Notes under the pieces: model-generated
Databases searched by the model: none
What the model saw: only the letters and a program-made list of their open reading frames with translations
What the model was told of the DNA's origin: nothing
Made by a program: the position numbers and the translations under genes
Shown: positions 553 through 34,364 of the stretch, in pieces
Layout: every line of letters begins with the position of its first letter
How positions within the stretch are numbered: position 1 is the stretch's first letter
NCBI GenBank assembly: GCA_001724265.1
Contig: MEDY01000322.1
Coordinates: 1-34,364 of the forward strand
DNA from: Rhizaria sp. SCN 62-66
Lineage: Eukaryota
Direction of reading: 5' to 3'
DNA: 34,364 bases

Positions 553-3500
553 ATGCATTGCGCTGTTTTACGCATCCCCGATTTGTTTCTGTCTTCGCGC
601 AGCGTCATGTTCCCTGTCGTCGGCGGCAGCGGGACAGGCGCGTCTGGTGGTGCGTCAAAAGATCCAGGTTCTCTGGCACGCACCACCCACTCGACCCCCA
701 ACGCACACAAAGACCCATTTAGCAGCACAAATGATTGTAAGTATCACAATACTGATACACATCAACAACAGAATTTTGGCTCCACCAAGGAAACATGTTG
801 TTTTGGCCCAATTCCCGCTCCCACATCCTCACCGAGCACTTTAACCTCCAATTCCAGCCAGTCAACACTAACACACAAGACGACCGCCAACTCCAGCTCA
901 AGCTTCAGCTCTAGCTCCCGCCCCGCGTGCTCCCGCCCCGGCACCAATACCGCCGCTTTCTACCCCTGTGTGAGCGTCAGCGTGAACGATAGCACTTTTG
1001 GCTTGGATAACCCTCCGCCCGACAAAGCTAACACTGCCTCAACCTTCGCCGCCGGAAATGTCACCCTCGCGGCCCCCTCGTGCATCGCGGACGCGCCCTC
1101 GGTTTTCGCCTTGGCCTCGGTTTCCGCGCCCACAACAATCGCGCCCTCTGCCTCTGCTTCTGCCTCCTCTGTGGCAAGGCTTGTTCCGGGCGTGGTTGCG
1201 GCGGCGCATTCTGTGGAGTTTTCGGCGGCGGAGTCCATGCTTGAGCACTCGTATGCCGACGATGATGGCGTTCACCACAACGACTACAGTGGCCCTAACA
1301 ACAATGTGTATAACTATTACTCGCACGAAGTGACTATTGCGAGTCATAATGCCGATGAGAACGGTCACCAATTGAATGCCAATGTCAAGAGTAGTATCAC
1401 TCCTGTTTACCGCGCACCCAACGCCAGCAGCAGCAGCAGCAGCAACATTGCAACTGCCGCGCCTGCTGCTGGCAAGGTCAGCCTCACGTGCTACACTCCC
1501 TGCGCCTCTGTGTCGACCCCAGTCGCCATACAGGCCGCCCCCGCAGCCAACTCATCCTCTCAGCTGCCCTTGGCGACCGCTGAATCGGTCGCGCGCGCCC
1601 AGGCGGGGCTGTCCGCGCTCGCGCTCGACGCGCAGGCACAGGCTCCGGGACACGCGGCCGGACACATGCCCTTGGCGCATGCGCAGTTGTCGCCGCAGTC
1701 GCTGTTGAGCTCGCGGTCTCTGTCGCGCGTCGCGCACGCCCTCTCCGGCAGCGGCAACGGCAGCGGCAACGGCAATGGCAACGGCAATGGCAATGAGAGC
1801 GCAAGGCGGAATGAGTCTGCGCGGCCGCTCGCAGTCGCCACTGTGCCGTCCTCTGTGAACCAGGGCATCAACAACGGCAGCGCAGGCGTTGCGGCCGCGA
1901 GCAGCGGGCGCACGGGCGCCGGCGTCAGCGCCTGCGCCAGTGCTGCTGCAAGTGACACCGCCGCCGCCGCCGTCGACCGCCTCGTCAAAGACACCACGAA
2001 CGCTCTGCTCGACGAGCTCGCGACCACACTCGCGCTCCCCAACTACAGCTACAGCAACAGCACCACGAGCAGTAGCAGCATCAGCAGTAACGGCAAGAGC
2101 GACGGCAAGAACGAGGTGGACGTGAAGGCTGAGGCCAAGGCCGCGGCTGAGAAGGCCGCGGTGGCCGCGTTCGCGACGCTGACGAACATCGTCCGGCACG
2201 GGCTGCATGGTCAACCCAGTGCCGACGGCTGCGGCGGTGCCAGCTGCGGCGGCCCCTTAGTCAGTCTAAGCCACCCCTTAGTCGGCGGCCCCAGCGCGCT
2301 TGCTCCCGGCACCGTCATCACCCTCTGCCTCCTCGGGCCCCGGCCCGGCGACAGGCCCGTCCCCCAAACCGCGGCCGAGACCGCCGCCGCGGCTGAAACC
2401 GACGAGTTGGCCTCCGTGCTGCGCGACGACCTGTCGTTTGTGCTCATCAACTCGCTCCGCGACGCCTCCCCGCGCCGCCGCGCCGCCGCCGCGCAGGCCG
2501 TCGCCGCCGTCGCCGCGGCGTCCCCCGCCTGCTTACTATGGGCCGCGCGTCTGGGCCTGGTCGAGCCGCTGGTGCTGATGGCGACGGACGCGGCGGCCGC
2601 GGACGCGCAGCAGCGCGCCTGGTGGCGCCACCAGCGCGCCGCCGCGCGCGGTGAGGTCTACGACAAGCCGGAGCGCTCAGCACGCGCGGACCCCGCGGCG
2701 CACGCGGACGCCGTCGCCAACTGCGAGCCCCAAATCCAGAGCGACAGCAAGGGCGACGGCAAGAGCGGCGGCCGCGCCTCGATCCGCGCGGCGACGGTCG
2801 ACGCCCTGGCCCGCAGCCGCGCGCTGCTTGGCCGCGAGCGCGCGCTCACGGTGCTGGCCGCGGCCGAGACCGCGGCGGCCGCGCTGCCCCTCTACGCCGC
2901 CGCCGCGGGTGCCGCCGCGGTCGACGAGGCCGCGGCCGCGGCGCGGGTTCACCGCTGCGACGCCGCGCTCGACGCCGACCAGGCTGACTGCACGCGCCGC
3001 CAAGAGGACCCTTTTTGTGTGCTCAACGAGTCGCTGCGCGTGTTGCCCGACTCAGCGGCGCCGGTACGCGCGGTCACCAGTACCGCCGGTGCTGCGGACG
3101 CGCGCGTATCGCTGCTGTATGCCACGCCGGAGGAGGCCGTGGCGGAGCTCTGGCGCGGCTGCCAACGACTTGTTACTGAGCTCGACAATTTCGCCCTCGC
3201 GACTCTTAAGACTGCGAAAAACAACAGTGGCAGTAGCAGCAGCAGCAGCAACAGCAACAATGACAACGACAAGAGCATGAACAGTAGCATTTCGATGCAG
3301 TCAGGTGCCGTTGTTGGCCCTGATTTCGACTCGGGCGCTTCTGTCTTGGCTCTCGATGACAGTGACGAGGATCTCAGCCGCTATTCCGCCGCCGCGCTGG
3401 ACCGGAAGCATGACGTTTTGACTGCGATGCGCCGCACGCATGCCATGAGCGCTTACACGACTGCGCGCGTCAACGAAATCTGGGCCGGCGTCGCCGCGTT

Positions 3501-3562
3501 CACCGCCGCGGACAAGAGCGCGCGCGCGATGGAAGACGACTGTGAGCTGAGCGACTCCGCCA

Positions 3563-3594
<32 letters not shown>

Positions 3595-3813
3595 AGCGAC
3601 GAGGGTGATCTTGACGATGATGATGACCACGATGACGATGACAACGTTGAGCCTGCGGCAAAGACTGAGACTGCGAGTCATGTTGGCTCCAGCAGTCGCT
3701 TTAAGAAGGCTGTATCGCTTTCACAGTCGCAGATGCCGTCAGAGTCGTTGACACAGATCGTTTCATAGTCCCTGGTTCATCACTTTTCGCGCTCGCAGTC
3801 GCGCTTGCAGACA

Positions 3814-3851
<38 letters not shown>

Positions 3852-4038
3852 CTCTCCCGCACAGTCGCTCCCGCAGTCGAAGACCGGCGCCCATGTGCCT
3901 TTCGTCGTGACCCTCAAGCCGCCGGTGGCGATCACGATGGCCTTTCACACCGCGTCGCTCCCCACTGCGTGCGACGACGGCCAGCAGCAGCAAGACGACG
4001 GTTGTGTCGGGCTGAATCTTCCGACTGCGTCAATGTAA
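553..4038 (+). CDS. Hypothetical Ala/Ser-rich protein (~1,160 aa) with a possible ARM/HEAT-like helical segment and an acidic tract. It has an in-frame TAG at 3766-3768, read as Gln.
   Basis: ORFs 454..3768 and 3805..4038 are in the same frame and separated only by one TAG (..LTQIVS*SLVHHFSRSQSRLQTQTQ..). GC-rich coding style persists to the TAA at 4036-4038 and AT-rich sequence follows. The first in-frame ATG is at 553, so the start is uncertain. The segment LINSLRDASPRRRAAAAQAVAAVAAASPACLLWAARLGLVEPLVLM looks ARM/HEAT-like (inference). Confidence 0.7.
3808..3849 (+). repeat. (CAGACG)n coding microsatellite encoding (Gln-Thr)n
   Basis: A tandem hexamer is visible directly downstream of the in-frame TAG. 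Confidence 0.9.
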
Positions 4039-5730: not shown

Positions 5731-8700
5731 TCAGTCGCTGTCGCTATCAGTGTCGGCGCCCGTGACGGTGTCGAACGGCGCGAACGCCGCCCGCAGCGCC
5801 GCCGTCGCCCTTTCCTCCTCCTCCTTCTCACTGCCGCCGCTGCCGCCGCTGCTCGCGTCGGTCGCCGCAGCGACGCAGCGGCGCCAGTCGGCGCGCTCGG
5901 GGACTCCCGCGGCCTCGGCCAGCAGCGCGCGCGGCAGCTCCAGCAGCGGCACGCGCGCGATCAGCTCGCTCACCGCGCCCTTGGCGTCGCCGCCCTCGGC
6001 AGCGCCAGCGGGAGCGCCTGTGCCGGAGCCAGTGCCGGAGCCAGCGCCGGCGGCGGTGAGGCTGATGCCCGTGGCGGCAGCGAGCGCCACGTCGCGGTCG
6101 CGTCCGCGCTCGCGGTCGCGCGCGGCCGGCGTCACGGCCCACAGCTGCTCACAGTCGCTGTCGCCCTCCTCCTCATCATCAGCAGCGTCAGCAGCAGCCG
6201 CAGCGTCAGCAGCGTCACCAGCAGCGGCAGCAGCGGCGGCGCCCTGCTGCTGTTGCTTGAGGGCGGCGATCTGGACCTGGGTTGGGAAGCGCCAGTAAAA
6301 GTACGGCGGCAGCTGCGACAGGTCAACCGCACTCGGATTGCTCTCGCCAGCGCCCTGCTGCTACTGTGGCTGCTGTTGCTGCTGTTGGTGCAAGGGTGTA
6401 CTTAGATCGAGCGCCGTGAGCATCTCCGCGATGCGCGCGCCCTGCCCACAGTCGCCGCGCACTCGCACCAGGCCGCGGCGACGCATTTCGCGCGCCACGC
6501 GCGCCGCGAACCCCGCCAGCTCAAAGGGGGCATTTGGACTCCCCGCAACAGCAACGCCGGCGGCGGCAGCGCCGCATCGCAGCGGGAGGCCGAGCGTCTG
6601 CACCTGCATGTGGTGTGTCGAGCGCGTCTTGTAGTAGCGCTCGCAAACCACGGTGCCCAGCCCCTGCGCCGCGTTCATGCCGCGCAGCCCGGCCAGGAAG
6701 CCCTCCAACTCACGCACCAGAGGCTTGACTTCCGCGCCGGGCCCAGTCGCGGCAGCGGCGACTGCGAGGCACGGCACGTGTGCGATGGGCAGCACGAAGG
6801 CATGCGAGCCGTTGATGGGGCCGCGGGGCAGCGCGAGATAACTTTCGTCGGCCACGGCGGCGACCAGGTGCGTCGCCGCGCGCGGGTTCGACAGACAAAA
6901 CCAGCAATCCGCGTCACCGGCCGCCACCGCACGTTCCTTGTCCCCGCGGCCGCCGCTGCTGGCGCGAGCGCGCTGGGCGGTCAAGACGGCGGCGGCCGCG
7001 GCGGCGAGCGAGAGCAGCGACGCCGCGGGCAGCGCGCGCAGCACGGCCGCCACCACGGGCGGCAGCGGCACCGCAGCAGCAGCAGTGCTGCTGTCAGCGG
7101 CGGCCTGCGTGTCAGAAGTTAGGCCGGCGGCCTGACTAATCGCGGCCTCCGCTGCGGCGAGCGCAGACGCGTGCGCGGCGGCGGCGGCGGCGGCGGCCAG
7201 CTCGCGGCTGCGCTCGCGCTCGACCACAGCAGCCACATCCTCCTCCTCAGCAGCGGCGGCATCGGTCGCAGCAGCGGTGGCGGCGCTGTGGATGCCGTTG
7301 CTATTACTATTGTTGTCGGCGCTCGCGTCAGAGGGCGCAAGCGGCAGCCCTGCGGCCGTGGCGGCGGCTGTCTCCCGTTGCAGCGCGCCGGCCAGCAGCG
7401 TCAGCACGCTCGACATCACGAACCGCGTCCGCTGGTGCTGCTGACCGTGGGAGTCACGTGTACCGTGCGTGCCGCTGCTCGAGGGGACGGGCTCGGTCTC
7501 GGGCTCGGCGATGAACTTGGCGTTAACAAGCGCACGCACCACGCGCATCAGCCCGCCCTGGCCCTGGCCCTGGCCCTGTCGCTGCTCACGGTCCCCCCGC
7601 TGCTCGCGGTCGCGCTCGCGCTCACGGTCGCGCTCGGCCTTGACGGGGCACATCCGCACATAGTGTTCGCCGCTGCCGCAGACCACGCACGCGTATCCCG
7701 CCGGCGGCGGCCCGTTATCACGCTCACGGTCACCGCGCTCCCGGTCGCCGCGCTCGCGCTCGCCGCGCTCGCGCTCGCGCGGCTGCTTGTCGGCGGCGCG
7801 CTGCTGCGCGACGGGGCAGTCGCTGATGTAGTGCGCGCCCGTCAGCCCGCACGCGTGGCACGAGTACCCCGCCGGCGGCGCCGCGCCCGGCGGCTGCGGC
7901 GCGCGGCGCTGCTGCTGCTGCTCACGGTCACCACGGTCACCACGGTCCGCACGGTCGCTGTGGCCACGGTCGCTGGACGACTCGGAGTCAGGCCGGCCGC
8001 GCTTCAGACCCCCAGAGCCAGAGCTGCCATCAGCGTTATTGTTGTTGTTGGAGGCGGCGAGGTGACAGTCGCGGATGAAGTGGCTGTTAGCGCCGCAGAG
8101 CCGGCACGCGTAGCCCGGCGGGGGCGGCTTGACTTCCCAGCGGCCCGCCACACGGCTGCCCGTGGCGGCGGCGCGCGCGTCGGCCTCCTCCAGCGACGCG
8201 AAGCGCAGCGCATCCACGCCTTCTTCGTGACCGAGACCGTGGCCGTGGCTGGCAGCGCTCGTGCCAGCGGCGCTTGCAGTGTACGTCGCGGGGGCCAGAG
8301 CGCTGCTGTTGCTGTTGCTGCTGTTTTGACTGATGTTCGTCTGCGCGGGGGCGCTACTTAGAATGGATGTAAGGGGGTATGGCGAGAGCGGCATCGCGGC
8401 CAGCGCGGCGGCCGTCTCGCCGCCGGCGTTGACCACGAAGCCAGAGTTCGCGCACATGGGCGTGATGGAGAACGCCGTGACGTCCTTTTGTTTAGCCGCG
8501 TTGCCCACGGGCGCCATCAAGTAAAGCCGCGTCACGACTGTACTCGTAGTACTTGTGCTGCCGCTGCTGGTGTTGACGATGTTGCGGTAAGGAGGCACGG
8601 CGGTGTAGGTGCCGCGCACGTGCGTGTAAGGGGCGCCCCTTAGACCGGCGTAGGTCCCCCCCGGCGCGTGCATCGACGACGAGATGTGGTACGCAGGCAC

Positions 8701-10125: not shown

Positions 10126-10704
10126 AGCGGAAGACTAAACAGCAAGGATGTTATTAGAACCTCAACTACAGTGCAAAACAGAAAGAGATGGAAGAGAGCG
10201 AGAGCCTAGATCGGGGAAGCGAGGAGAGAGGACACCAACGGACAAGTCGAAACAGCGTGAGTGCGTACAGCCTGATGATGAGGTCCGCAAGACAAATAAC
10301 TGAAAAGGTTACGCATTTAGAACGTATTAATCGTCGATTCAAAAGGAATTCCCTATCGACGGAAGTTGATCTAACCTTGCATTGCGAACTCAATGCCCCC
10401 CTCGGCCCACCACCAGCGCCTGGCGGGAGCTGGCTGTCGACCAGAACGCCGAGCCACCACGCATTATCGCCTTCAACTCCCCTCAACCCACCGTCACTGG
10501 CTCTCCCGTTCATCATCCACGTTGAATTATCTCTTATCTCACTGATCCCTTTATTATCTTTGTCCCGCAGCAAACTACCCGGCCCTGCATATCCCGCACT
10601 TCCAGCCTCCCACTTCTCTCGATCGAGCCGCTCCCTGCCCCCGCCAGCCCGGCCTAACCCCCGTTCGCCCGCTTCCCGCGCCCTCCCGCGCTCGTTCCCG
10701 CCCC
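10126..10704. promoter_or_regulatory. Short divergent (head-to-head) intergenic region, likely a bidirectional promoter plus 5' UTRs
   Basis: The CWF19L1 ATG (10125, -) and the methyltransferase ATG (10705, +) face away from each other, 579 nt apart. No specific motif was identified. Confidence 0.45.
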
Positions 10705-13606
10705 ATGTCCGCGCGCGTGAACGACATCTGGACGCGCAAGGCGCGCTCGCTGGGCTTCCCTTCCCGCGCCGTGTTCAAGCTCATCGAGGCGCAACAGAAG
10801 TTCCGCCTGCTGCGTCCCGGGCAGCGCGTGCTTGACCTGGGCTGCTCGCCTGGGTCCTGGACGCGCCTCGCCGCGCGCTCTGTGGGGCGCAAGGGCTACG
10901 TGCTGGGCATAGACCTCACGCCGCTGGAGCACGACGAGGTGCGCGCCCTGGCCGCCGAGGTCGCGCCGTTGCGCATCGGCCAGGCGCCCCCCGCCGACCA
11001 AAGCAGCGCTGGCGCCAACAACAGCAATAAGCGCGGCGTGTCGAGTCTGTTCGGCAACGCGGCCGCGAGCGCCAAGGTGGGCGGCGCGGCCAAGGGCGAC
11101 GACGACGCCGCCGCCGCTGTGAGCATGGACGCCTACCTCAGCAAGCTCGAGCAGAAGCGAGTCCTCGCTGAGCAGCAGCAAGAGGAGCTAGAGGGGCAAG
11201 AACGAGAGCTTGAGCAAGACGGCGTTAGCACGAGCAGCGACGCTGACGCCGACGCCATCATGAACGACTCCACTCAAACAGCTGACGTCAACACTGCTGC
11301 ACCTGCTGCAACTTCTGTTGAGACGGCGACTCCTGGCGGCGGCAGCGGCCGCGCGTTGCTTAAGGCCGAGGCGCGGCTGGCCCGCTCGCGCGCGCCCGTG
11401 CGGCTGCTGTACGGCGACGTGACCGAGTGGCGGCCCGACGCGGTGCACCGGCAGGCCTTCGATGTCGTGCTCAGCGACATGGCGCCCAAAACCACCGGGC
11501 TGCCGTCGGAGGACGCGGCGGCCTCTGCCGAGCTCTGCCACGCCGTGCTCGACCTCTGTCCGCGCGTCATGAAGCCGCCCGTGCGCAAGTGGGTCACTTA
11601 CAACGCTGCTAGCGCTGACGCTGACGCCAGCGCCGCTGCCGGCAGCGCGAGCGCTCTCAGTGGACGCGACGGCAGTGACGCGGAGACTGAGGCTGACGCG
11701 AATGCGACTGCCGCTGCTGCTGGTGCTGCTGCTGGTGCTAAGAGCGCCAACGACAAGGGCGAGGTCGAGGAGGACGACGACGAGCGCGGCCTCCGCGACA
11801 TTGGCGCCTTCGCCCGCGCCGCCCCCTCGAGCGCCGGCGCCGCAGCCGACGCGAAGGTAAGTCGCGTGTCGGCGGCGACGGACCTGTACTCTGCAACGCT
11901 GCAGCGGCGGCTGGCCAAGGCCGGGCTCAGCGATGAGGACGCCGCCGCCGTCGCGGCCTCCGTGCGCGCCGCGCCAGAGGAAGTCACCGAGGTCGACGTC
12001 GCGGTTCTCAAAAAATCGCTCCGCACCGCCGCCAAGATCAGCGTCAACAAGCACAACTCGCGCTCTAGCGCCGCCGCGCCCGAGGGCGAGACCGCAGCGG
12101 CCGAGACGGCGAGCGAGCGGCGGCTGGAGACGTACTACCGCGGCGCGCTGCTCATGAAGGTCTTCCAGGGCACCGACTTCGCGCCGCTGCTTAAGCGTGT
12201 TAGGGTACGTGACATGCGCACTTGCCACGCGACGCACCGCGTGGAATGACTTGATTTGACGTCCATGTTCTGGTTATTAATGCGACTGTCATGTGACTAT
12301 GCTTGAAATAATTGCATGTTCTTTGCCTAAAATCCTATCTCACATCATCCTAACTTATCTATCTTTTTTTCATCCTCACTGATTTCTCTCCTCGACCCAC
12401 TGCTCTCGACAGGAGATGTTTGTGAGCGTCAAGTCGTTCAAGCCCGAATCATCGCGCTCGGAGTCGGTCGAAATCTTCCTCTTCGCCAAGGGCCTCCGCG
12501 TCCAGAGCAACAACAACAACCGCAACAATCTCTCTGACGGCGGCGACGCGAACATGAACGACCCCAGCGGCGGCCCCAACAGCAGCAGCGGCGGAGGCAG
12601 CGGCAGCGGCAGCCGGCTGGTGGGCCGCGCGAACGCGGGCTACATGACCGCCAGCGGCTTCGTGGCGCCCGCGGGCGGGTTGGGCGGCCTCCCCGTCGGC
12701 CCCGGCCCCGTCGGCCGCCGCCTGCAGCGCTCCCCGGTGCCCACCGGCTACTACGACAGCGACGACGCAGACGTCGCCGCCGCGCGCACGCGGCTCGGCG
12801 GCTATAACGGCGACGACAGCGAGGCGCATGCGCAGACGCAGGCGCAGGGGCGGCTTGACTTCGAGGGCATGAGCGCGGTGATGCGGCAGAACCTGGCGCT
12901 GGGTGAGAGCGCGTACTTTGACACCGTCGACGACAGCGTGCGCAACAACGACACCGGCCGCGGCGGCCGCAGCTACGCCAGTCGAGCCAGCCCTATCCCT
13001 AGCCCCAGCAACAGCAACAGCAACACTAAGACTCGCGATGGCAGCGGCGTGAGCGTGAGCTTCGGCACCGGCACCGTCACCGTCCCCGCCACCAAGTCCA
13101 CCGCTGCCGCTGCCGCTGCCTCTGCCTCTGCTGAGGACGCCGCAGTCGACGCCGAGCTGGCCGCGCTGGAGGCCGCCGAGACCCGCGCCCGCGCGCGCGC
13201 TGCCGCGAGCGCCGCCTTCGCCGACGAGGACGACGACGATGACTACCTTCCCCCCAGCAGCGGCAATAGCTCTGGCTCTGGCACTGGCAGCGGCAACAGC
13301 GCTGCGGAGCGCGTGGCGCGACTGCGCGCGCTGACGGGCCTGTCGCTGTCGCAGCCGGTCGCGGCGGCCGACGCGGCGGCCGCGGCCGCGGCCTTCAAGG
13401 AGGAGGGAATGTGGTTCGCGCGCCAGGTCTCGGTGCTGCGCGACGTGCCGCGCGTCGACATGGTCGGCGCGCTGGGCATCGACGACGATGAGGACGAGGA
13501 CGACGCCGCTGGCGCGGTGAAGAGGGTGAAGAAGACCGCGACTGCGGCGGCCGGCAGCGGCGTGATCAAGAAGAGGCGCCGCAGCAGCGTGCTCGGCGAC
13601 GAGTGA
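10705..13606 (+). CDS. MRM2: FtsJ/RlmE-family rRNA 2'-O-methyltransferase, MRM2-like, ~897 aa with long low-complexity insertions. Model: join(10705..12204,12413..13606).
   Basis: Motifs: D.WTRKARSLGFPSRAVFKLIE, VLDLGCSPGSWT (SAM binding), GIDL, GDV, FDVVLSDMAPKTTG, LLMKVFQG and, in exon 2, FVSVKSFKPESSRSESVEIFLFAKG. Together they give the full K-D-K-E tetrad. SDMAP-TTG is the RlmE/MRM2 type rather than the Trm7/Spb1 DGAP type. The gene ends at TGA. The true start may lie upstream, since there is an acceptor-like site at 10570. Confidence 0.88.
12205..12412 (+). other. Spliceosomal intron in the FtsJ/MRM2-like gene (208 nt)
   Basis: AGG|GTACGT donor, AT-rich body with CTAAC/CTGAT, pyrimidine tract and ACAG|GAG acceptor. 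The phase-0 join gives KRVR-EMFVSVKSFKP. Confidence 0.9.
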
Positions 13607-14014: not shown

Positions 14015-17000
14015 TTACTCCAAGAGGAAAAAGCCAGCCCCGTCTCCAGCGTCGGCATCAGCGTTGGCGTCACCCTCTGTCCGTGACTGCGCCTGCGCCT
14101 GTGCGCCCTCGGCGTCCGCGTCAGAATCGGCGTCTGCGTCCGTGAAATCGATGAGACTGAGCGTCCTGGCCACGAAGCCCAGCCCCCGCCCCTTGCTCGC
14201 GCTCGCGCTCGCAATGCCGCTGCCGCTGCCACCACCGCTGTCAGCGCCGCCCTTGCTCTTGCTCTTGCTGCCGGCGCTACCGTGCGCGCCGGCGCCGGCC
14301 GCGCCGACCGTGGGCGTGGGCGGGAACGCTGACAGCATGTTCAGGTTGCTGCGCTGCTGCTGCTTCTTGCTGCTGCCCGCGCCAGCGCCCCCGCTCGCGG
14401 CGCCGGCGGCGCCGGCGGCGGAGGAAGACGAGAGTGAGACGGACAGCACGGGCCTGCGCCCGCCGCTGTTCTGAGCGTGGCTGTGGCCGTGGGCGCTGCC
14501 GCTCGCGCCCGCGCTGCTGATACTGCTGCTGCTGACCTGACCGCTGTAGCGAGAGGGTGTTGCGAGGTCTGCGGGTGTGCCGCTGTTGGTGTTGTTCGCG
14601 GCGGGTTTCGCCAAGAGAGGCGTTTCGGGGCGCGAAAGCGACGACGAAGTTAAGCCGTGAAAAGAAGCAGAAGCCGCGTTTGAGACAGATGCGGAGCCAG
14701 AGCCCACTGAGTGCGAGCTCGAACTGCTGCCAACGCTGCTGCTGTCAAAGCACGGCGTGCTGGTCCGCGTCACAATCCTGCTGACTCGGCCGCTGCCGCC
14801 ACCGACCGCGCTATGCGTGTTGACGTGCGCGCTCGGCTGTAACGGCAACTGCAACTGTGACTGAAGGCTGATGTCAAGTGCCTGCGAGTAGTGGCCGTGC
14901 GCAGCCAAGTGGCTGTGAGCAGAGAACTGACGGCCCTGGGCCCAACCGGCCTGGCTCTCGGGCGCGAGCGGCTGCGACAGCGGCTGAGCGCTGCCACGAG
15001 TCGTCATCAGAGCCGCAGTCGCAGCGGCCTCTCCACTTAGCGCGCCCGCCGCTGCGAAGCCCTCTCCGCTCTGCGCAACGCCTCCGATGACGCCGTGGAA
15101 GCGACTCACGCGCAAACCGAGGCCGAAGCCAGCGCCGTGGCCGTCGCCACCCTCGTCGTTTCCATGTGCGCGCTCCCCAGCGACCGCAGCGGCCGCAGCG
15201 GGGTCGATCTCGGCCTCGGCCTCCGTCTCAGTCTCGACCTCGGTCTCAGTCTCGGCCTCCGCCTCAGTTGCCTCAGCCTCAGCCTCGGCCTCGGTCTCGG
15301 TCGCCTCAGTCTCAGTCGCATCTGCCTCCGCCTCCGCCTCAGCCTCGGCCTCAGCCTCTGCGGCCTCGGCGACGACTGCGCGCAGGTACCCGCCGACGCG
15401 CCCGGCGACCGCGGCGACTACCGCGCCCGCCGCCGCGCCCGCCGACGCCGCCACGGCCGCGGCCGCGCGCGCGAGCGGACCCGCGCGCCGCGCCGCCGCG
15501 CGCTGCTGCTGCAGCGCCAGGTGGCGGCTGATGGCCGCGCGGACCACGCGCTCGCGGTCGCTGCGCTGGTGCTCGCGGTCTGCGCGGTCCAGCCGCTCGC
15601 GCTCGCGGTCACTCTGCCGCTGGAGCTGCTGCTGCTGCTCGCGGTCACTCTGCTGCTGGTGCTGCTTGCTGGTGCTAAGGTTGTTGCTGTTGCTGTTGCT
15701 GCTGGAATTGAAGCTCGAACTAGAGCTGTTAGTGCCGCTGGTAGAACCTGCATTGCCAAAGCTAGCGTTGTTCAAATGAGCGCTCTTAGACTCTGCAGCG
15801 GCGGCGTCGCATAAGTGCACCTTAGCCTGGTCGAAGTGCCGCTCCCCGTCCAAGTGTGACTGCTCGGCCCACAAGCTGCCGCCGGCGGGGGCCAGCGGTG
15901 AGCGCGGCGACAACAGTGCCGCGGCGCCCGCCCAGCCCTGTTGCGGGCTATGCTGCTGCTGCTACTGCTGCAGCTGCTGCTGCTGCGGCCGCTGCAGCGA
16001 GACCGCGTGCTGCAGCTGCAGCGCCTGCGCCTGCGAGTGCGCGTGCGCGCGTGCCCGCCCGTCGCTGCCGCCGTAGCTGCCAACGACGACCCCGCTGCCG
16101 GCGCCGGCGCCGTCGCCGTCGTCTTCGTTGTCTCTGGGCAGGAGCGCGGCGGCGGCGGCGGCGGCGGCGGCGGGCGACGAAAGCGCCAGCGCCAGCCGCG
16201 CGGCGGCCTTGCTTTCGAGGCCCGACTGGCGTCGGGGCTGCAACACGTACCCGCTCTGGCTCAAACCGAGACTGGAACTAGAGCAAGCGCCAGCAGCGCT
16301 GCCATTGCTGATGAGCCCTGTAACGAAACTGAATCGAGCAATGTTGTTATTGTTGCCGTTCGCGACAGGCGTGCGCCGGGGGGTGCGGCGCTTGCTCGGT
16401 GTCCGACCCCCGCTTGCGGCCGCAGAGCCAGCGCCAGCGCCAGAGTGGGCGTTCGGACTGGGGCTGGGGCTGGGGCTGGGGCTGGGGCTGGGGCTGGGGC
16501 TAAGATGGGACGTCGGCGTGAGCGTTGCTGCGGAGGCATCGCCGCTGCTGTAGTTGGGGCTGTGCTTAGGGACGCTACGATCGTCATCGTCATCATCGTC
16601 GTCTTCGTTGTTAAAATCGCCAACGTATGCGATATCGTCATCACAATCGCACTCGCTGTCGCCGTTGCAGCCGCAGTCGCGGGCGTGGCTGCTGTCGGCG
16701 ATGCTGTCGTTCAACGCGTCTTCGTCGTCGTCGTCGTCGTCGTAGTCGTCATCCTCCTCGCAGCTGTCGTCGTGGTCGTCGTGGTCGTTGCAGTCGTCGC
16801 AGCCGCCGTCGCCGACGCTACGCCCATGCGCGCAGCACGCGCTGCCGGCGACGGCGTCCTTGTCGCCCGCAACAGCGTGGTGATGGTGAGCGCCCCGACT
16901 CGCAGTCTTGGCGTTGGGGCTCATATGGTTCCTGAGCCGGTTGACGACGATGTCGTCGGCGTCGTCCTCGTCCTCTTCGGCCGCCAGCGCGAGCCTGAGC

Positions 17001-22701: not shown

Positions 22702-25700
22702 TCAACTCAGGAAAAGCCTCTTGAATTCCGCTGTGCGAAACACTTCGAACTCCTTCGCTGTGTCTTTGCTGTTTGCAAAATACTCCGCCACTGCCCGCCG
22801 CTTTGACTGAGCAATTGCGTTGAACGCATCACGCACGCGCTTTGCACGCCGCTCAGTCCGCAAACGCGCGTAGTCACTTGGAGATGGAAAGAGGTTCTTT
22901 TGCAAGCCGTGACGCTTTGAACATTGAGAGACGTGTGTGTGCATTTCAGCCATGCCGTTCGTAACAACGTTAAAACACACGCCGCAAAAGCAGTGGTCAT
23001 ATGATCCTGTGTTGCACGAGTCGTCGTCCTGCTTCCGTTCGTTGTGAATGCACGACACAGCTGCGCAGCCTTCCCAGTCAATGACAAACCGCCGGCACGA
23101 AGGCTTGGGGCAGCGGTCAAGCAGGGCCTCGCGAACTGTAGCAATTTCCTTGGCATGCTGCTGCTCAAACACGGTTGAACGGGCAAACTCGGGATCACCC
23201 ATAGGGTAAGTGCACTTGCACGAAACGCAGCGAAAGTCTTTCCCTTTTATCGAGGCCTCTGTTTAAAAAATATTAATAGTACAGTGTACAGATAATGACA
23301 TGGACATTAAAGAAAACCAATGTGAGAAATTACCACAAATGCGTTTGCTTTTGGATTAAAACACAAATCACTCATATAGGTTATAGAACCAACGTTTTTG
23401 TTTAATGGTGCACAAATAAATATTTTGTTTGACGTACTGTTATCAATGAGATTTGTCGCGAGTTGAACCTCTGAACACTTGGTTGCAGGGCACTTGACAT
23501 ACTTGACTTCCTTTTGCGCAGCAAGAAAGTCGTCGCGAGACTTTGTAAGCATCGCGTGTATGTCGTCTTTGGAAAGTGCGGCCCATGGCACGTCACGTAA
23601 CTGGTATGGCTTCTTGCAGACGCCGCAGTGGCATCCGTCACGCTTGATGTTGGCAACAGCTGCCGAGAGGCAATCAACGCACACAACATGGTTGCACTTG
23701 ATGGGCGCAATGCCAACGTTAAAGCGAGTGATTGTGTCGCCGCAGACAATGCAGCTGTCGGGAGCAACAACGTTCAAGATGTTGCTTGGAGGTTGGTCGA
23801 CATAGTTCTCGGCTGTTCCTGACATTAAAGCAACAAAATCATCAACCTGGCTTTGAGTTCCAGAAAGATAAAACACTTTGTTGAGTAATGATCTTTCATT
23901 CACAGCTGCAGTGACGCTTGTAACGTCTACAGCAGCTTTGAGGACATCAACAGGAATATCATAAACTGACTCAAATTTGACATCAACACACTCGTAAGAA
24001 AGCACTTTCTCTTCAAAAGAGAGCACAGCAGCGCGCACGCGCTCGCACCGGTATGCGTTGCCGTAGAAGTAAACATGTCCTGATTGCGCACACAACTTGC
24101 CCCAGCACCTTTCGCTAGCATCACCACCGTTGCTGAAGCTGCCAACGGTGCCAGTAGTAATATCTGACGTAAAACCCTCGCCGTGTTGACCAAACAGAGC
24201 CGCGAGATGGGCACGCGCGGTCGGACCAGTCATGCGGGAGAGCGCATCGGGACGAGAAGTTGAGATTCTATGCTTGATAAAAGAGAATGTGTTGTGGAAC
24301 GCTTCTTGAGCGCGCATTGCTGCGTGCTCTCCTCCAACCATCACATTAATCTAGTACCGACGCAATTGAGTGCACCAGCTGTCCGAAACGCCAACCTGAC
24401 TCCGAACTCTCATGATATCAAGAGCCTGCTTCAGAAGATCGCACATGTATGACCCCACAGCATGACCGACATCTGGCGGCAACTCCACTGTCATACACAC
24501 CATGTCGCGATACTCAGTCACGTTTTCACCCCACAGTGCTTTGCGATCAAGACTATCTGGGACGAGACTTTCTTCAGTATCAAAAAAGAACAAATCCTCC
24601 TTATCTTTGTGTGTCCGGCCGTACCCGTACATTATTGGTACATCAGACAGCGTAGGATGGCTTGAATAGTAGGCTGATTCCGAGGGCACGCCCCACGTAA
24701 AGCGAGTGCATTTGCGCACGAAAATCTCAGAGGATGTGTAAAAGTCACCATGCTTAACGCATGTAGGAATCATCATTGGTTCTACGTATTTCGATTCATA
24801 AACAGATTTGATAGCTTTAGCATCCGAGTTAGAAGTGCAAAGAACCACGTCATGCACACGTCCTTCTGTGCCTGGGATTCGGGTGACAGAACGCGAGACC
24901 TGAGGCTCCAGTGAAGACAAAAACTGTGGTAGCAATAGGTGTTGCACGCCGCTCTGAGTTTCACCGTTGCACGATGAGGTATTGATGAAGACTGCTGCTG
25001 TTTTAGCGTCTTCGCCAAGCAGCAAGGTCTCTGCCACAAGACCTGCTCCACAGTGCAACGTTGTGCCACAGCCCAGGTCAAAGCAGTAGATCTCTTTCTC
25101 GATGTACCTTAGCGCTTTGACCATTACAGACCTCAGTCCCTCATCAATTAGGCGATTGGGATGCATTGCTCCCAGATAGCGAATATAATTCGCACCAAGA
25201 GAGTAGACACCTTGCCCGCTAGAGTTGTTGTTACAGTTCAATTTGTCTTCCAACTCCGCCTTTGACCCGAAGACTGCGCGAATGATTCCCGTTGAGTAAG
25301 GATTGTCTTCCACAAATATACTCTTCGGGTTGTTTTGGGTGCCCTTAGCCTCGTAGTCACGGAACTCGGTGCCGGCAAGGTTTTTAGCAATTGAGGTAAT
25401 TGTGTCGACAGTCTTGCCGGCGGCGGCCCTCAGTGCATGAACCCAAATTCTAGCGTCAACAGCGTTAAAGCTCGACACAATATCACGTTCAGCCGCGCTA
25501 GCAATCTCAGTAGCCTCTGAAGCGTCCCTAAAAAGGACACCCACCGTCTTCCGCAGATGCCAAAAACACATTAGTAACCTCACTGAGTTCTTGGTGTTAT
25601 TTATGCCATTGCGGTGCTGCTGCGCCAGGAGGGGGTTTTCGGGCTCTGCATCTGTCATGGCGGCCGAAAGCTCATTGCACGCATCAGTCTCGAGCGGGAT

Positions 25701-27974: not shown

Positions 27975-28575
27975 TTGCTAAAATAAATGTGCGGCGACTT
28001 CTTTGCGGCCGGAGGGTCTTTAGTAGGAAGTCGAAACACGAGTCAATGGCACGTGAAGTCCAAAGAATTTGGGATGAACAGTTTGATTGAAATAACCGGC
28101 AAAAAAATAACAAAAAAGGGGCGCTTTTGGAGAACATTTATATGTTTAAAAAAAAACAGTAATCTTTCATTCGACGATCTAGATCTGCCTCAGGAGTTTC
28201 TTGGACCTTTGACATGAGGAATATTACAACCTGCTGTTGCCACTTGAATACCATGTTGAAATGACCGTGACCATGAAGAATCATGTGAACGATGTTATTG
28301 TGTATTTGCTCGAGGCGTGTCATCAAATGCAGTACAAAACTGCCCAGACATTGGTAAACCGTAATTCTAATGTAACTAATCTTATCTAGTGGTATAAAAC
28401 ATTCATACAGCTAATATAAGCATTCACTTGTCATAGTGCTTGATAAAAACGGCGATTTGTCACCTAACTCGTTGACGCGCACTCTGGCAGTGAGGTCTGC
28501 AGGCCAGTCAGCCCCCCGCTCGATGCAAGTCGCTCGCGGCCACGACTCCGCGCCACTCAGAGGCGCTGGCGCGGC

Positions 28576-29110
28576 TCACTCGTAGCCCGGCGGCTGGTGC
28601 TGCAGCAGCAGCGCGCGCACGCGGTCTTCGAGCGCAGGCGGCGGCGGCGCGGCCGGCGCAGCAAGCGCGATCGCAGTGGTGTTGGAGCCGCCGCGGCCTT
28701 CGGCTCTGTCGCCTGCGCTATAATCGAGCCCGTGGTCAGGGTCGTGATCGGGGCCGTGGTCAGGGCCCAGCGAGGGCAGCGGCAGCATCTCCAGCTCCCC
28801 TGCGCGCGCAGAGCCTGGAGAGGGCGCGGAAAGTGGAGAGGTCGGCGCGCGGACCGGAGAGGCCGGGACGAGAAGGGGCGACTCCGCCGTCTCCGCGGCT
28901 GAAACCGGAGAGGTCTGCGCCCCTCCAGCGCCAGTGCGCGAAGCTGAGGGCTGCGCGGGCAGCGAGTCCGGACTCTGTCCGTGACTGTAGCCGTCGCAGC
29001 CGTCGCCGTAGCTGTTGTCGCCGAGGCTGTGGCCCGCACTGCCGCTGCCGCTGCCGCCGCCGCTGCCGCCGCCGGGACTGGGACTGGGGCTGCGGCAGTG
29101 GTGGTAGGGC

Positions 29111-29142
<32 letters not shown>

Positions 29143-32100
29143 TTGTTGTTCAGAGGAATCGCCATTCGCAGCGTTGGTGCTGTCGCCGTCGAAACTAAGC
29201 CGCATCGATGGCGGCTTAAGTTCTTCGTCCTCGCCCTCATCACCCTGCTGCGGCTTTGCTGCCGCACTGCCACTGCAACTGTGGCTGCTGGTGTGGCTGC
29301 CACGGCTGCTCCCGACGCTGAGGCCGTCTGCCTCCGAGTCCGTCGCCGCAGCGGCCGCCTCAGAACCGCCACCGAGCCCCGCACCGCCGCGGGGGATGCC
29401 CTGCAGCGTCGACGCAGACTGCAGCGGCGACTGCCGGTCCTGCTGCTGCTGCTGCTGCCTCTGCTTGCGGTGCTGGGCGTAGGCCGGCGAGGATGCCGAA
29501 GACGATGACGGCGACGGCGTCGGTGGGTCGTATAAATACATGTCCCCATCCCCATCCTTGCCGCAGTCCTTGCTCTTGCTCCCATCCGGACCGTGACTTT
29601 GGCCGTGGCCCTCGCGGCCGCGGTCGCGGGGCGGGCTGGGACTGAGGCTCACGGTCACTGACACGGCCGGGCGCAGCCGCGCTGGAGCCGCGGCGGGCGC
29701 AGCGCTGCCAGCAGCAGTGGCGGCAGCAGCAGTAGAACAAGGGGTCGCGCTGGCACCAGCGCGGTGGGGAGAGCCTGTCACGGCGGCGGCGAGCGCGGCG
29801 GCGGCGGCTGCTGGGGAAAACGCCCTGGGCCGGGACTTGGAGCCGCCGCCGCCGCTCGCACTGGCCGCCGCGGCCGAGCTTGCACTCGGATTGCCAGGCG
29901 CAGTCGCACGCGCCCGGGGACTAGCCCGGAGGCTGGTCTTGGCTGCAGCGGCAGTGGTCGCAGCAGGGGCGGCGGCGGCGGCGGTGCTGCTAGCCATGGA
30001 CTGTGGACTCTTGTCTGTGCTCTTGCGAACGCTCTGCGTCTTGATCTTGCTCTGTGCGCCCATGCTCGCTGCGCCGCTGAACGACGCCGCCGCCGACCGC
30101 AGCGGCGACGCGGACGGGGACGCGGACGGAGACACGGAGGAGTTGAGCGAGATGACGCTGACGTCGTCGTCGGCCATGCACGCCGCGCTTAGATGCTGGC
30201 GCGGGGTACTTAGATCCGGGCTCACGGGGGGACTTAGACGCTCGCTGGTCGCCTTGGTCTTGGCGGCCTCGGCCTCCGCAGCGCTGGCGTAGACGCGGGT
30301 GCGCGTGATGACCACGGCCTTGCCGCCGCCGCCGAAGCCGCCGCCGCCGAAGCTGGTGGCGTCCGGGTCAGATCCGTCGCCGTCGTCATTGTTGTTCGCG
30401 TGGGTGGTGTTGTTACGATTGTTGCTACTGGTGTGTCCGTCGTCGTCGTCTGCGTCAGTGTCGGAGTCTGAGAGGTAGAGGCTGGGCTCCGTGTCGATAC
30501 CCAGCACCTCGGTCGGCGCGGCAGCAGGTGCGGTTGCAGCGGCAGCGGCGGTGCGGTCAGCGGGCACAGCGGCCGCGCCATTGGCGGCGACCACGGGCAG
30601 CTGGGGCAGCCGTGGCGTCGACCCCAGCCCGGGACCCGCGGCGTCCGCGGCGGCGGCGTCTCCGACGTCGCTGCGGCCGCGGGCAGCAACTGTGGGCGCA
30701 GAAGCGACCGCGGGCGCCGCAGCGGCAGATGGCACCGCGGCGACTGTGGGCGCGGGGCCGGGGCCCAGACTGGGCCGGCTGAAGCGCGAGACTGAGCGTG
30801 GAGCAGACCGGTCAACAGCAGCAGTTGCAGCAGCAGTCGTCGCGGTTTCGATACCGCGAGCAGTGCCGCGGCTGGGGCTGGGACTGAAGCTCGCCCGGGC
30901 CCGGGGCTGGGGCTGAGGCTGGGGCCGAGGCTGGGGCTGGGGCTAAGGCCGGGGGTTCGCGGCGACAGCGACGCTCGCGGCGGCACTAGAGGCGCTGCCG
31001 AGGTTGGTGTGGGCGCCTGTGCCCGCGCTGCTGGGGCGGGGCCGGGAGCGGGACCGGGCGAGGAACTGAGACTGCTGAGACTGCTGAGATTGCGAGAGCG
31101 AGGGCGAGTGCAAATGGGCGTGGGCAGGGGAAGGGGGGGGACGCGCGCTACGTGGCGTTGCAAGGCCCTTAGACGAGGTGGCGGCAAGCCCCTTAGACTC
31201 GTCGGACTTGAACTCCACACCAGCAGCAGCAGCAGCAGCAGCACCAGGCACGCGCCCCTTGGACTGCGCGCGCTCCCCCCTAGAGGACATCAGAAACTCC
31301 TGAGCACAACTCCCCGCACCCGCACTCGCGCTCGCGCTCGCGCTCGCGCTCGCAGCTGCAGCCGCCGTTGCAGTCGCTGGATCATGTGCATGTGATTGCG
31401 CCTGCGCCCGTGCCTGGGACTGGGCCTGAGCCTGTAACTGTGACTCTGGTTGCGGCTGAGAGGCGGCCGCGCGCGGCGGCGGCGACTGCGGCCGCAGCAC
31501 GGGGATGCGCGACGGCGACATCGCCCGGTCGCGCTCGCGGTCGCGGTCACTGGATGCGTCGTTACCGCCACGGTTCTGGGTTTGCGGCGGACGCTGTGGC
31601 TGCGAATGTGACTGCAATGCAGCCTCAGTCTACGCCCGCGCCTTCGCCTGAGGCTTGGCCTGGGGCCTGGCCTGCGGCTTCGCCTGCATCGGCGCCGGCC
31701 GCGGGCTGGGACCGGGGCTGTGCGCAGCGCGAGAGCTAGCGCCAGAGCCAGAGCCAGAGCTCGGGCGGGCGCGGCCGGCGGCGCCAGGGCCAGTGATGTC
31801 GTAGCGGCTACGCGGCGTGGGGGGCAGTGCAGGCGCAGGCGCGGCAGCAGCGGCAGCGGCGGCGGCGGCGGCTGCTGCTGCGGCGGCGGCGGCGGCAGCG
31901 GCAGCCTCAGCCTTCCTGTTGGCCTCGGACGCGGCCTCCGCCTTGGCGACTGCGGCCGCTGCAGCCGCAGTCGCCGCCGCCGCCGCCGCCGCCGCAGCAG
32001 CCTCGGCAGCAACGGCCACGGCGGCGGCCTCGGCCTCAGCCTGTGCCTTGGCCTCGGACGCGGCGGCCGCCGCGGAGGCCGCGGCGGCGGCGGCGGCCCC

Positions 32101-32836
32101 CGCGGCAGCGGCGGCCTGCGCCTGCGCCTGCGCCTCAGCCTGGGCCTGGGCCTGGGCCTGGGCCTGGGCCTTGGCTTTGTTCTGTGCCACTGCATTCGCA
32201 GCGACAGTGGCAGAGGCGGGGCGAGGCCGCGGGCTGAAGCCTCGGCCGGAGTGACCGTGGGCCGCTGTTGCGGGCGACTGAGAGCGCAGCGCAGTGCGGG
32301 GCGAGTGCGAACGCACGGCTGAGCCGAAAGCAGTCTTTTGGGCAGGGGTCGGGACCGCGACTGAGCCTGCGGCTGCCCTCGTGTAAGAAGTAGTATTGGT
32401 GCTGCTGTTGTTGTTATTGTTGTTTTGTGAGGCTGCAGCGTCGAGCTCGCGGCTTAACTTCCGCGCGACGTCCGTCTGCGCCTCCTTAGACAGCGCCGCC
32501 CCCTTAGACGACGAGGGAGACAGCGCACGCGTGGCAGCGCTACCGAGCCCTTTAGACGCGGCAGCGTCCCCCTTAGACTGCGAGGCCTCAGCACCGCGAG
32601 CGCCCGCGCCCGCGCCGACGCTCGCGCTCGCGGCAACGGGAGACGGAGCTGAGGTCGCGACCGCGACAGGGGAATCAGCCGCAGACGCGGACGCGGTCGC
32701 AGCTGCGGCGTTTGGAGCGCCCGGCACGCGGGCGCCCGCAGCAACGGAGCCGGGGCGCGGGCTAGCCAGCGGCAGCGGCAGTGGCGGCCGGCGCTGCGAG
32801 TGCGCGTTTGACGGTGACGGCGAGGGCGCAGGCGCA

Positions 32837-32880
<44 letters not shown>

Positions 32881-34364
32881 TGCCACGGCAAACCGCGTGC
32901 CAGCGAAAGGCGCGTCTGCGGCCGCAACAACGCGGCCGCGGCCAAACGCAACGCCGCCGCCGCCGCCGCCGCCGCTGCCGTGGGGCCGAGGGCTGGGGCT
33001 CAAGCTGACGCGGGGGGACTGAGGGCGGACGCCGGCTCCGGCCCCGGCTCCAGAACCGGCTCCGGCGCCGGCTCCAGTGGCAGCGACAGAGCTAGAGCTA
33101 GAGCCGGAGCCCGTCGAGGTTTGCGGGCGCGGGCGTGACCGGGAGCGTGACTGCGGGCGACGGGCATCTGCACTCGCACTCGGGGTGTCATTGACACTAG
33201 GAGTGATAACGTGCGGCTGAACTTCCTCGACCTGCGGCTTGAATTCCGCCGCGGCCTGCGGCCTGACTTTCCCCTTGGGCGTCCACGCCGCGGGCACCGG
33301 GGTCCGCGCCAGAGCGCCCAGCGCCAGCCGCGGCACCGGGGTCGACGCCAGCGCCAGCGCCGCCTGTGGCTGCGTGTAGCCGCCAGCGCTCGCCAGCGAT
33401 GGGCGCACCGGCGACGGCGACCGCGACGGCGACTGCGTGTGTGGCTGCGGCGGTGGCTGCGCGAGCGTGAGGCGCCAGGGCCCCGCGTGCAGCTCGCGCA
33501 GCTCCTCGGCCGCCTGCAGCTGCAGCTGCTGCTGCTCGCGCTGCTGCTGCTCCGCGCGCGCGGCCGAGGCCGCCGTGGGCGCCGTCAGCGCGCGCGACGG
33601 CGGCCGCACCGCCACGCCCGGAGGCACGGCCGCGCTGGCAGACGACGACGACGACGATGACAACAACGGCGGCGGCGACTGCGGCCGCCCGGGAGAGCGA
33701 AAACAGGGACTCAGCGCGCGGCCGCCGCGGCGCTCGGCGTGGCTGCCGTCGGCGCGGCCGCTGTGCGCGGGAGCGCGAGGACTGCTTGCGCTGGTGTTGT
33801 TGTTGTTGTTGTTGTGATTGTCAAAGTGGAATGTCTTGCGGCCCTTAGACGTGGCTGACCGCGGAGGCGGGTACTTAGATGAAGACGATGTATCGTGATA
33901 GTCAAGCCGTGCCGGAGTAAGTGCTCCCAGCACGTCCCCCTTAGACCCAGCCGACATACCCGACGACGACGACGACGGGGGGATACTTACATTCCCCGCG
34001 CTTACACCACTTACACTGGCCCGCGCGCCCCGTGCAGACACTGCCGGCGAACCCGCCGGTGAGCCTCCACGGACTGGCGACCCGACTGGCGCCCTGACTG
34101 GGGAGCGAGCGGGCGAACTCAGGCGGCTGTAGACGTCGGGGCCCGGGCTGCCGCCGCGAGGTCCATAACGCTCGCGCTCGCGCCCGCGCCCGCGGACGCC
34201 TTCGCCGGGGCTGTGGCCGTGCTGCTGCTGTTGGTGCAGCAAGAGCTCCTGCTGGTGCTGCTGCTGGCGTCGCGCGCGCGCAGCCGCCTCGGCCGCCGCC
34301 GCCGCCGCCGCCGCCTCGGCCGCGGCCGCCGCCTCCTGCGCGCGCCGCGCCGCCGCCGCGCGCT
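28576..34364 (-). CDS. 5'-partial giant (>1,900 aa) Ala/Ser/Pro/Gln-rich, probably disordered hypothetical protein, with in-frame TAGs at 31630-31632 and 30943-30945
   Basis: ORFs 31630..34242, 30943..31617 and 28576..30735 share one frame and are interrupted only by two TAGs. The frame is open to the window edge and ends ..LEDRVRALLLQHQPPGYE-TGA. No recognisable domain. Confidence 0.75.
32824..32880 (-). repeat. (GCGCCC)n coding microsatellite encoding (Ala-Pro)n
   Basis: A tandem GGCGCR hexamer is visible on the + strand. Confidence 0.85.

Follow-up and report, generated by a model that had tools for sequence, protein, structure and literature searches.

Does the sequence around an in-frame TAG reveal which amino acid the codon stands for? 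This question is raised by the window analysed here, a stretch of 34,364 nucleotides from Rhizaria sp. SCN 62-66 that represents the whole of contig C322 in an assembly of 34.9 Mb and 714 contigs. On its minus strand, an imperfect (Pro-Gln)n repeat (30901..30957; N-P-R-P-X-P-Q-P-Q-P-R-P-Q-P-Q-P-Q-P-R) carries a TAG in one of its Gln slots (30943..30945). The original prediction, made from the letters of the window, was that this repeat identifies the amino acid as Gln. Our analysis indicates that UAG is almost certainly a sense codon in this organism and no longer a stop, with UAA and UGA terminating translation. As for its meaning, we tentatively prefer, at a probability of about 0.45, a code in which UAG is read mainly as Glu while UAA and UGA are kept as stops; the odds that we attach to this and other readings of the residue are a matter of judgement and were not computed.

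The repeat and its reading frame

The focal TAG is codon 1140 of a low-complexity frame rich in Ala, Ser, Pro and Gln (28576..34362, minus strand), which comprises 1,929 codons without TAA or TGA, contains two TAGs, ends at a TGA and has its 5' end past the contig edge; a Pfam scan of this frame gave no family match. The codons quoted in the original prediction, from CGG CCT TAG through to the closing CCC CAG, match the minus strand exactly at 30951-30907. The trained coding model keeps the frame together as one piece of coding sequence (28536-34364) and shows no gap of intron or intergenic character at the TAG. An intron acceptor at this position was rejected, since there is neither an AT-rich segment nor a break in the coding score, and so was the idea that a true stop separates two genes here, given the unbroken coding score and the tally of gene-end codons described below. 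The TAG is not an assembly error either, because a contig from DNA run X3 (record 15, from the independent study P2) spans 29155-31072 with no other letters and no gaps. The listed pieces of polyA RNA run X4, which come from low-depth contigs, did not cover the focal TAG. The second TAG of the frame (31630..31632, minus strand), found in the context K-A-R-A-X-T-E-A-A, is spanned by a contig of this polyA library (record 23), at contig level only and with one unplaced difference in 257 letters.

The slot holding the TAG is biased towards Gln, as had been supposed, though by no means reserved for it. In P-x-P-Q contexts (n = 71), x is Q in 21 cases, P in 10, L in six, R in five, E, S and A in four each and TAG in two, the rest being others; in the narrower P-x-PQPQ contexts (n = 11), Q occurs seven times, P twice, R and TAG once each. 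Within the focal repeat itself, two neighbouring Gln slots hold CGG (Arg). The proposed origin of the TAG by a C-to-T change of CAG is most likely correct and agrees with the flanking codons genome-wide (see below). However, the repeat does not identify the amino acid: being unconstrained, it tolerates substitutions such as the CGG in Gln slots, the tRNA-CUA of the organism is of the Glu type, and the TAGs found within conserved domains tend towards Glu. The caveat that came with the prediction, namely that a CAG origin does not on its own prove decoding as Gln, turned out to matter.

UAG as a sense codon

Codons were counted in a sample of 869,701 bases consisting of tiles from 12 contigs, the loci found in searches and the window, and segmented by a coding model that treats the three stop codons alike. 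Ten regions and the locus of release factor eRF1 were included because they hold a TAG, which, if it biases the TAG rate at all, raises it. The 142,501 internal codons included 41 TAG, one TAA and no TGA, along with 4,940 CAG, 922 CAA, 4,735 GAG and 687 GAA. A second filter yielded 36 TAG, three TAA and four TGA, or 24, one and none at a stricter margin (>2). This excess of in-frame TAG lies beyond chance, because non-coding DNA has fewer TAG (5,014) than TAA (7,620) or TGA (10,838).

Gene ends, which were taken from the coding model and not from transcripts, are formed by the other two codons. The first stops at all 217 segment ends, exon ends running into introns included, comprise 101 TAA, 98 TGA and 18 TAG. 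No TAG is found at the 62 convergent gene ends (TAA 40, TGA 22), nor at the 78 ends that precede gaps of at least 400 and show no donor-like site (TAA 44, TGA 34). Both the internal codons and the gene ends thus bear out the earlier view of TAG as a sense codon, and by its in-frame TAGs, end codons, tRNA-CUA and altered eRF1, the genome belongs to the class in which UAG alone passed from stop to sense. Usage of the codon is low, amounting to 0.7-0.9% of that of CAG or GAG, as compared with 15% for TTG/CTG and 22% for AGG/CGG; TAG is about 20-fold rarer than GC bias alone explains.

Two observations may be added here. The sole internal TAA (L120:3449-3451, minus strand) lies 5' of a Met and a Gln-rich tract, and might be a nonsense allele, a short intron or a gene boundary. 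At another locus (L153:5107-5301, plus strand), three in-frame TAGs occur within 65 codons of a single gene, and TAGs also cluster in the genes at L110 and L150.

A tRNA-CUA of the glutamate type

A search with a CUA anticodon-loop pattern returned 16 matches, one of which is a true tRNA (G000:C84:76008-76080, minus strand; 58 bits against the Rfam tRNA model), followed by a T-run. All 21 pairs of its stems are intact, although in five of them both bases differ from those of tRNA-Glu(CUC), and it has no long variable arm. Over 62 aligned positions, it is identical to tRNA-Glu(CUC) at 43, to tRNA-Glu(UUC) at 35, to tRNA-Gln(CUG) at 29 and to tRNA-Gln(UUG) at 24; the corresponding pairwise identities over 73 positions are 47, 40, 33 and 29. 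Seven positions are diagnostic, the two Glu tRNAs differing there from the two Gln tRNAs; the tRNA-CUA has the Glu-type base at six of them and the Gln-type base at none, the seventh being anticodon base 36. ARAGORN labels the gene 'Pyl' by its anticodon; the anticodon stem is an ordinary one of five pairs, the body is Glu-type and the Rfam match is to the generic tRNA family.

In the anticodon loop, C32-A38 stands in place of the C32-C38 of both Glu tRNAs, and U31-A39 is also present. In human tRNA-Glu(CUA), C32-A38 raised suppression over 20-fold and U31-A39 lowered it, and mass spectrometry showed that an engineered version with C32-A38 inserted Glu at ~95% of UAG sites (PMC12204705; here and below, statements on published systems refer to parts of the cited sources).

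No Gln-type CUA gene was present among the 16 and 34 pattern matches or the five matches to tRNA-Gln(CUG), a tRNA encoded by five identical gene copies, each with U28-A42. Likewise, none of the 30 examined among 34 pattern matches was a UUA tRNA; the other four duplicate the Glu(CUC) match. Given that 63 of 506 Rfam tRNA candidates were scored and that the assembly may not be complete, a gene may have been missed. When metagenomes were scanned by pattern for related CUA tRNAs of the Glu type, none came up, which is no evidence of absence, since the scanned set may lack nearby records.

Changes in the release factor

Compared with 120 homologues, eRF1 of this organism carries several rare residues, at positions given in what we take to be the human numbering (anchored on the GTS motif). 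These are T32S, which turns GTS into GSS (found in none of the homologues), G57S (0), T58K (1), L124M (0), L126M (7) and K130Q (0); Glu55, NIKS, Leu69 and Ser70 are unchanged. Thr32 bonds the G of UAG, and Gly stands at position 32 in Iotanema (PMC5304391).

The eRF1 gene itself has an in-frame TAG in the part encoding the N-domain (L039:1594-1596, minus strand, in G000:C63), at a Glu-dominated column, and the same TAG recurs unchanged in another metagenome contig (L182). A scan of metagenomes for eRF1 found four loci, one from the same organism and three unrelated. In the eRF1 tree, the protein shares a long branch with the metagenome protein P0001, its closest relative (84% identical), which has T58K, L126M and a changed K130 in common with it and keeps GTS and G57.

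Conserved domains and flanking codons

The TAGs of conserved domains point towards Glu, though the sites are few. Ten such sites were kept, after nine that we judged to be intronic or intron ends had been dropped beforehand, namely six of 11 kinase matches (L115, L116, L117, L118, L122 and L123) and three of five regions (L175, L176 and L178); read as codons, the dropped L175 would be Gln-like and the dropped L176 Glu-like. The TAG-bearing matches C208, C505, C132 and C390 stand outside the count. In Pfam scans of 40 fragments, the TAG lay inside the family match for UBE2J1, MORN and one kinase only.

None of the ten domain TAGs falls in a Gln-dominated column, while two fall in Glu-dominated columns and two in columns topped by Asp, few of the sites being well conserved. 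The column of the eRF1 TAG (n = 120) contains 108 E, 11 D, one V and no Q, and that of a TAG in a kinase hinge, among 34 kinases of the organism itself, 25 E, six D, three others and no Q. For UBE2J1 (n = 120) the column reads D35 N33 H16 T14 S13 E7 G2 Q0, and for Suv3 (n = 150) D100 S10 E8 Q8, plus others; five further kinase TAGs, and the one in MORN, stand in variable columns. Real Gln codons avoid columns with at least 70% Glu (0 of 249 in the organism's own kinases, 0 of 17 in eRF1, UBE2J1 and Suv3), where 18.9% of the 492 real Glu codons of the kinases are found. Conversely, 11 of 17 real Gln codons of eRF1, UBE2J1 and Suv3 are in columns topped by Gln, as opposed to none of the three TAGs.

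Pfam bit scores, summed over nine TAG sites (the domain-edge site L119 lies outside these sums), were 487.8 for E, 485.1 for K, 484.3 for Q, 478.8 for S, 472.7 for Y and 471.6 for L. The lower sums disfavour Leu, Tyr and Ser. Lys, which scores between Glu and Gln, was rejected because it has no tRNA support (32 of 62 positions) and poor flanks. The original prediction had placed Gln above Leu, Glu, Trp and Tyr; this ranking stands for Leu and Tyr by the Pfam sums and for Trp by the flanks alone, but it is not supported for Glu.

Several results weigh against a Glu meaning, first of all the codons that flank TAG. When they were tallied at the 41 internal sites, as the original prediction had proposed, Gln came out best (+39.4 log units), followed by His (+16.8), with Glu at -36.4. 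TAG stands in Gln-rich, acidic and other contexts 14, 2 and 25 times, where 17.4, 3.8 and 19.8 would be expected if it were Gln (p 0.24) and 1.8, 12.9 and 26.3 if it were Glu (p 3e-20); an even inflow from CAG and GAG, with expectations of 9.3, 8.1 and 23.6, fits poorly as well (p 0.03). At least two Gln within four codons accompany 14 of the 41 TAGs. The GAG-derived share estimated by a classifier is 0, a share of 0.3 being borderline (p 0.10) and one of 0.4 rejected (p 0.04), while under Glu it should reach 15-30% judging from strain differences or ~48% from codon-run changes. In Gln runs, the ratio of TAG to CAA is 3:253, and GAG occurs just five times. The domain evidence also has its weak points: the margin of Glu over Gln is merely 3.5 Pfam bits, with Lys between; the MORN site prefers Gln to Glu by 0.8 bit; the closest solved relatives of the hinge kinase carry Gln (RAF) or Ser (KSR) there; the nearest relative of the eRF1 has Val at the TAG column; and the sites number just ten, while a Gln-type tRNA-CUA may be missing from the assembly. 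A homologue search with the hinge kinase brought up nothing but a truncated protein of the organism itself; the protein P0396 stops right at the TAG.

The majority of TAGs derive from CAG. Nevertheless, flanks show the origin of a codon and not its meaning, because in unconstrained tracts a CAG-to-TAG change persists whether it is silent or exchanges Gln for Glu. Moreover, when the comparison is confined to the 38 segments bearing TAGs (49 TAGs under a looser filter), an even inflow from CAG and GAG fits as well as Gln (log-likelihood -42.9 vs. -44.2).

Competing readings of UAG

The scenario that we tentatively prefer runs as follows. At the level of sequence, UAG has been lost as a terminator, with UAA and UGA ending genes. 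The changes seen in eRF1, including Thr to Ser in GTS, should weaken the reading of the G of UAG. The lone dedicated tRNA-CUA, probably derived from tRNA-Glu(CUC) and tuned by the C32-A38 loop, would decode the codon and, since it keeps the Glu acceptor stem, would most likely be charged by glutamyl-tRNA synthetase, so that UAG would mainly mean Glu. Its use some 20-fold below the GC expectation suggests that UAG would be an inefficient, poor codon that is kept rare. TAGs may have entered silently from GAG in conserved domains, and from CAG, as a tolerated exchange of Gln for Glu, in Gln-rich tracts such as the focal repeat. That Glu is inserted at UAG wholly or in part seems to us rather probable.

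The most serious competitor, although in our opinion an unlikely one, is a code of the Iotanema type with UAG read as Gln. To this end, the Glu-bodied tRNA-CUA might have been captured by glutaminyl-tRNA synthetase, a Gln-type tRNA-CUA might be missing in the assembly, or tRNA-Gln(CUG) might read UAG by first-position wobble. The flanks favour Gln over all other residues and the three-way context fits it. When only the 38 segments bearing TAGs are considered, however, an even inflow of CAG and GAG fits equally well, and Gln-dominated columns hold none of the ten domain TAGs, against two in Glu-dominated ones. Precedent is on the side of Gln insofar as UAG-only reassignments are reported in PMC11687900 mostly to Gln or Leu. 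The U28-A42 pair of the five tRNA-Gln(CUG) copies is the one that makes yeast tRNA-Gln(CUG) a UAG readthrough tRNA; however, Py28-Pu42 occurs in standard-code species too, and hence proves little (bioRxiv 2023.06.19.543857). With respect to charging, an E. coli amber tRNA-Glu inserted 17% Gln (cited in PMC12204705), whereas the relevant part of PMC12204705 reports no Gln from a human Glu-body amber tRNA, and the tRNA-CUA found here is Gln-type at none of the seven diagnostic bases.

Somewhat further down the scale, we place an ambiguous UAG, at which either one tRNA-Glu(CUA) would compete with five wobbling tRNA-Gln(CUG) or both synthetases would charge the same tRNA. Such a mixed reading covers both the Gln-like flanks in unconstrained tracts and the avoidance of invariant Gln columns by domain sites, and it suits TAGs at positions where Glu dominates yet can be replaced, by Val in the eRF1 relative and by Gln in RAF. 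TAG would then be rare because it survives only where either residue is tolerated, and it is indeed rare, despite a tRNA of sufficient age to have diverged at 19 of the 62 positions while keeping its stems intact; still, a single tRNA gene together with leftover eRF1 activity explains the rarity too. In addition, a cognate tRNA normally outcompetes near-cognate ones, which counts against it. As a point in its favour, a yeast near-cognate tRNA inserts Gln at UAG (PMC4150775).

It is tempting to speculate that the TAG in the eRF1 gene acts as a feedback gate, by which more eRF1 would cause more premature stops in its own mRNA. A combination of this gate with a UAG that is ambiguous between Glu and Gln, the Glu-charged cognate tRNA and a wobbling tRNA-Gln(CUG) competing with a weakened eRF1, strikes us as improbable. 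Autoregulation of plant eRF1 is reportedly the topic of one study; at 0.29 TAG per 1,000 codons, the chance of one TAG in a gene of eRF1 length is ~12%.

Finally, that TAG is still a stop, its in-frame cases being nonsense alleles, intron acceptors, assembly errors or leaky programmed readthrough, is hardly credible: some TAGs in family matches are intron ends (six of 11 in the first set, three of five in the later one), no nonsense change arises more easily than CAG-to-TAG when a genome is GC-rich, and partial termination is compatible with the DNA data, but TAG closes none of the convergent ends or the ends before long gaps, it lies within the sole eRF1-type match besides Pelota and does so identically in L182, the focal TAG is confirmed in run X3, and a well-formed tRNA-CUA is present.

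Comparison with known codes

A literature search, outside which most subscription papers lie, found no report of UAG as Glu with UAA as a stop, nor of the code of this organism. The UAG-only cases listed in PMC11687900 are to Leu, Gln and Ser. The code of Iotanema spirale (UAG for Gln, UAA and UGA as stops; PMC5304391) resembles the present one in that UAG is the only stop codon turned to sense, UAA serves as the main stop and UGA as the second, and Thr32 of GTS in eRF1 is changed in both, to Gly there and to Ser here; Hartmannula, Trochilia and Protocruzia are further examples of such a code (PMC11687900). In Iotanema, however, 22 of 28 hyperconserved UAG columns are Gln (PMC5304391), as opposed to none of our ten domain sites in Gln-dominated columns; the tRNA-CUA described here is Glu-type, and UAG is far rarer.

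Other likenesses are to codes with Glu. In Oligohymenophorea sp. PL0344 (UAG for Glu, UAA for Lys), the tRNA-Sup(CUA) is nearest to tRNA-Glu and UAG is found at Glu columns, but UAA is reassigned, UAG is abundant and there are ten tRNA genes (PMC10553269), whereas the genome studied here is GC-rich, with UAA as the main stop and one gene. In Blastocrithidia and peritrichs, a tRNA-Glu(CUA) derived from tRNA-Glu likewise decodes UAG, with UAA and UAG both meaning Glu (PMC12153298, PMC11687900); here, we found no tRNA-UUA and no in-frame use of TAA, and eRF1 Ser70 is intact in contrast to those codes. The rhizarian exLh and phyllopharyngean ciliates from TARA (UAG for Leu, UAA as a stop; PMC5304391, PMC11687900) share with our organism the decoupling of UAG from UAA, but here Leu has the worst Pfam score (471.6 vs. 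487.8 bits) and the tRNA-CUA is without a long variable arm.

The organism and other features of the window

The organism is a eukaryote with a GC-rich genome, as seen from a eukaryotic small-subunit (SSU) rRNA and from eRF1 and Pelota genes with GT-AG introns. Matches to the dynein heavy-chain motor at 11 loci suggest that it is a flagellate. At least half of the window's words occur in four of the 17 listed runs, three of which, from three studies, one of them flagged as a possible source, are labelled as bioreactor, wastewater or activated-sludge metagenomes; runs sharing few words with the window were set aside. A contig that may belong to this organism carries an AT-rich and highly divergent SSU rRNA gene (L042:1501-5945), 4.4 kb long and with four group I intron matches; the first insertion of this gene comprises ~500 extra bases with, by eye, a His/Cys-rich frame that perhaps encodes a homing endonuclease.

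Single TAGs within coding sequence occur in four other long frames of the window, in two cases inside poly-Gln tracts. These two are a Cwf19-like gene with CwfJ_C_1 and zinc knuckles (frame 9366-5731, minus strand, TGA end; TAG at 6361..6363) and a 2,448-codon frame (21358-14015, minus strand, TAA end; TAG at 15962..15964). A third TAG (3766..3768, plus strand) is in the Ser/Gln-rich tail of a 1,198-codon frame (445-4038, TAA end), inside which ARAGORN placed a tRNA-Ala(GGC) on the minus strand (2662-2751) that is probably false and was ignored. The fourth (24351..24353, minus strand), in the context L-R-R-Y-X-I-N-V-M, is spanned by contigs from runs X1, X3 and X5. Its frame (28019-23307), missed by the coding model and without a Pfam match, has a lower GC content at third codon positions (0.55 vs. 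0.76-0.89) and, by eye, a Cys-rich RING-like end. A further TAG (27978..27980, minus strand), after a T-rich stretch and 5' of the first Met, is probably an intron acceptor or non-coding and was left out of the codon count.

Elsewhere in the window, an FtsJ-like methyltransferase gene with long low-complexity insertions occupies 10546-12249 on the plus strand, and the non-coding segment 21880-23090, with diverged second copies in several runs, is a dispersed repeat.

Implications

Few nuclear codes separate UAG from UAA, and in the sources cited those known assign it to Gln, Leu or Ser, Glu appearing just alongside a reassigned UAA. If true, UAG as Glu alone would thus be a new code. If UAG meant Gln, either a Glu-bodied tRNA would have switched its synthetase or near-cognate reading would carry the whole codon, and if its reading were mixed, we would be dealing with a living ambiguous intermediate. 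In practice, repeat context tells the origin of a codon and not its meaning, and gene callers using the standard code truncate TAG-bearing proteins, P0396 being an example. With a GC-rich genome, a barely used codon, one tRNA gene and few eRF1 changes, the organism makes the order of codon-capture events testable. Its relative represented by P0001 has T58K but an intact GTS, and the code used in that lineage would date the change.

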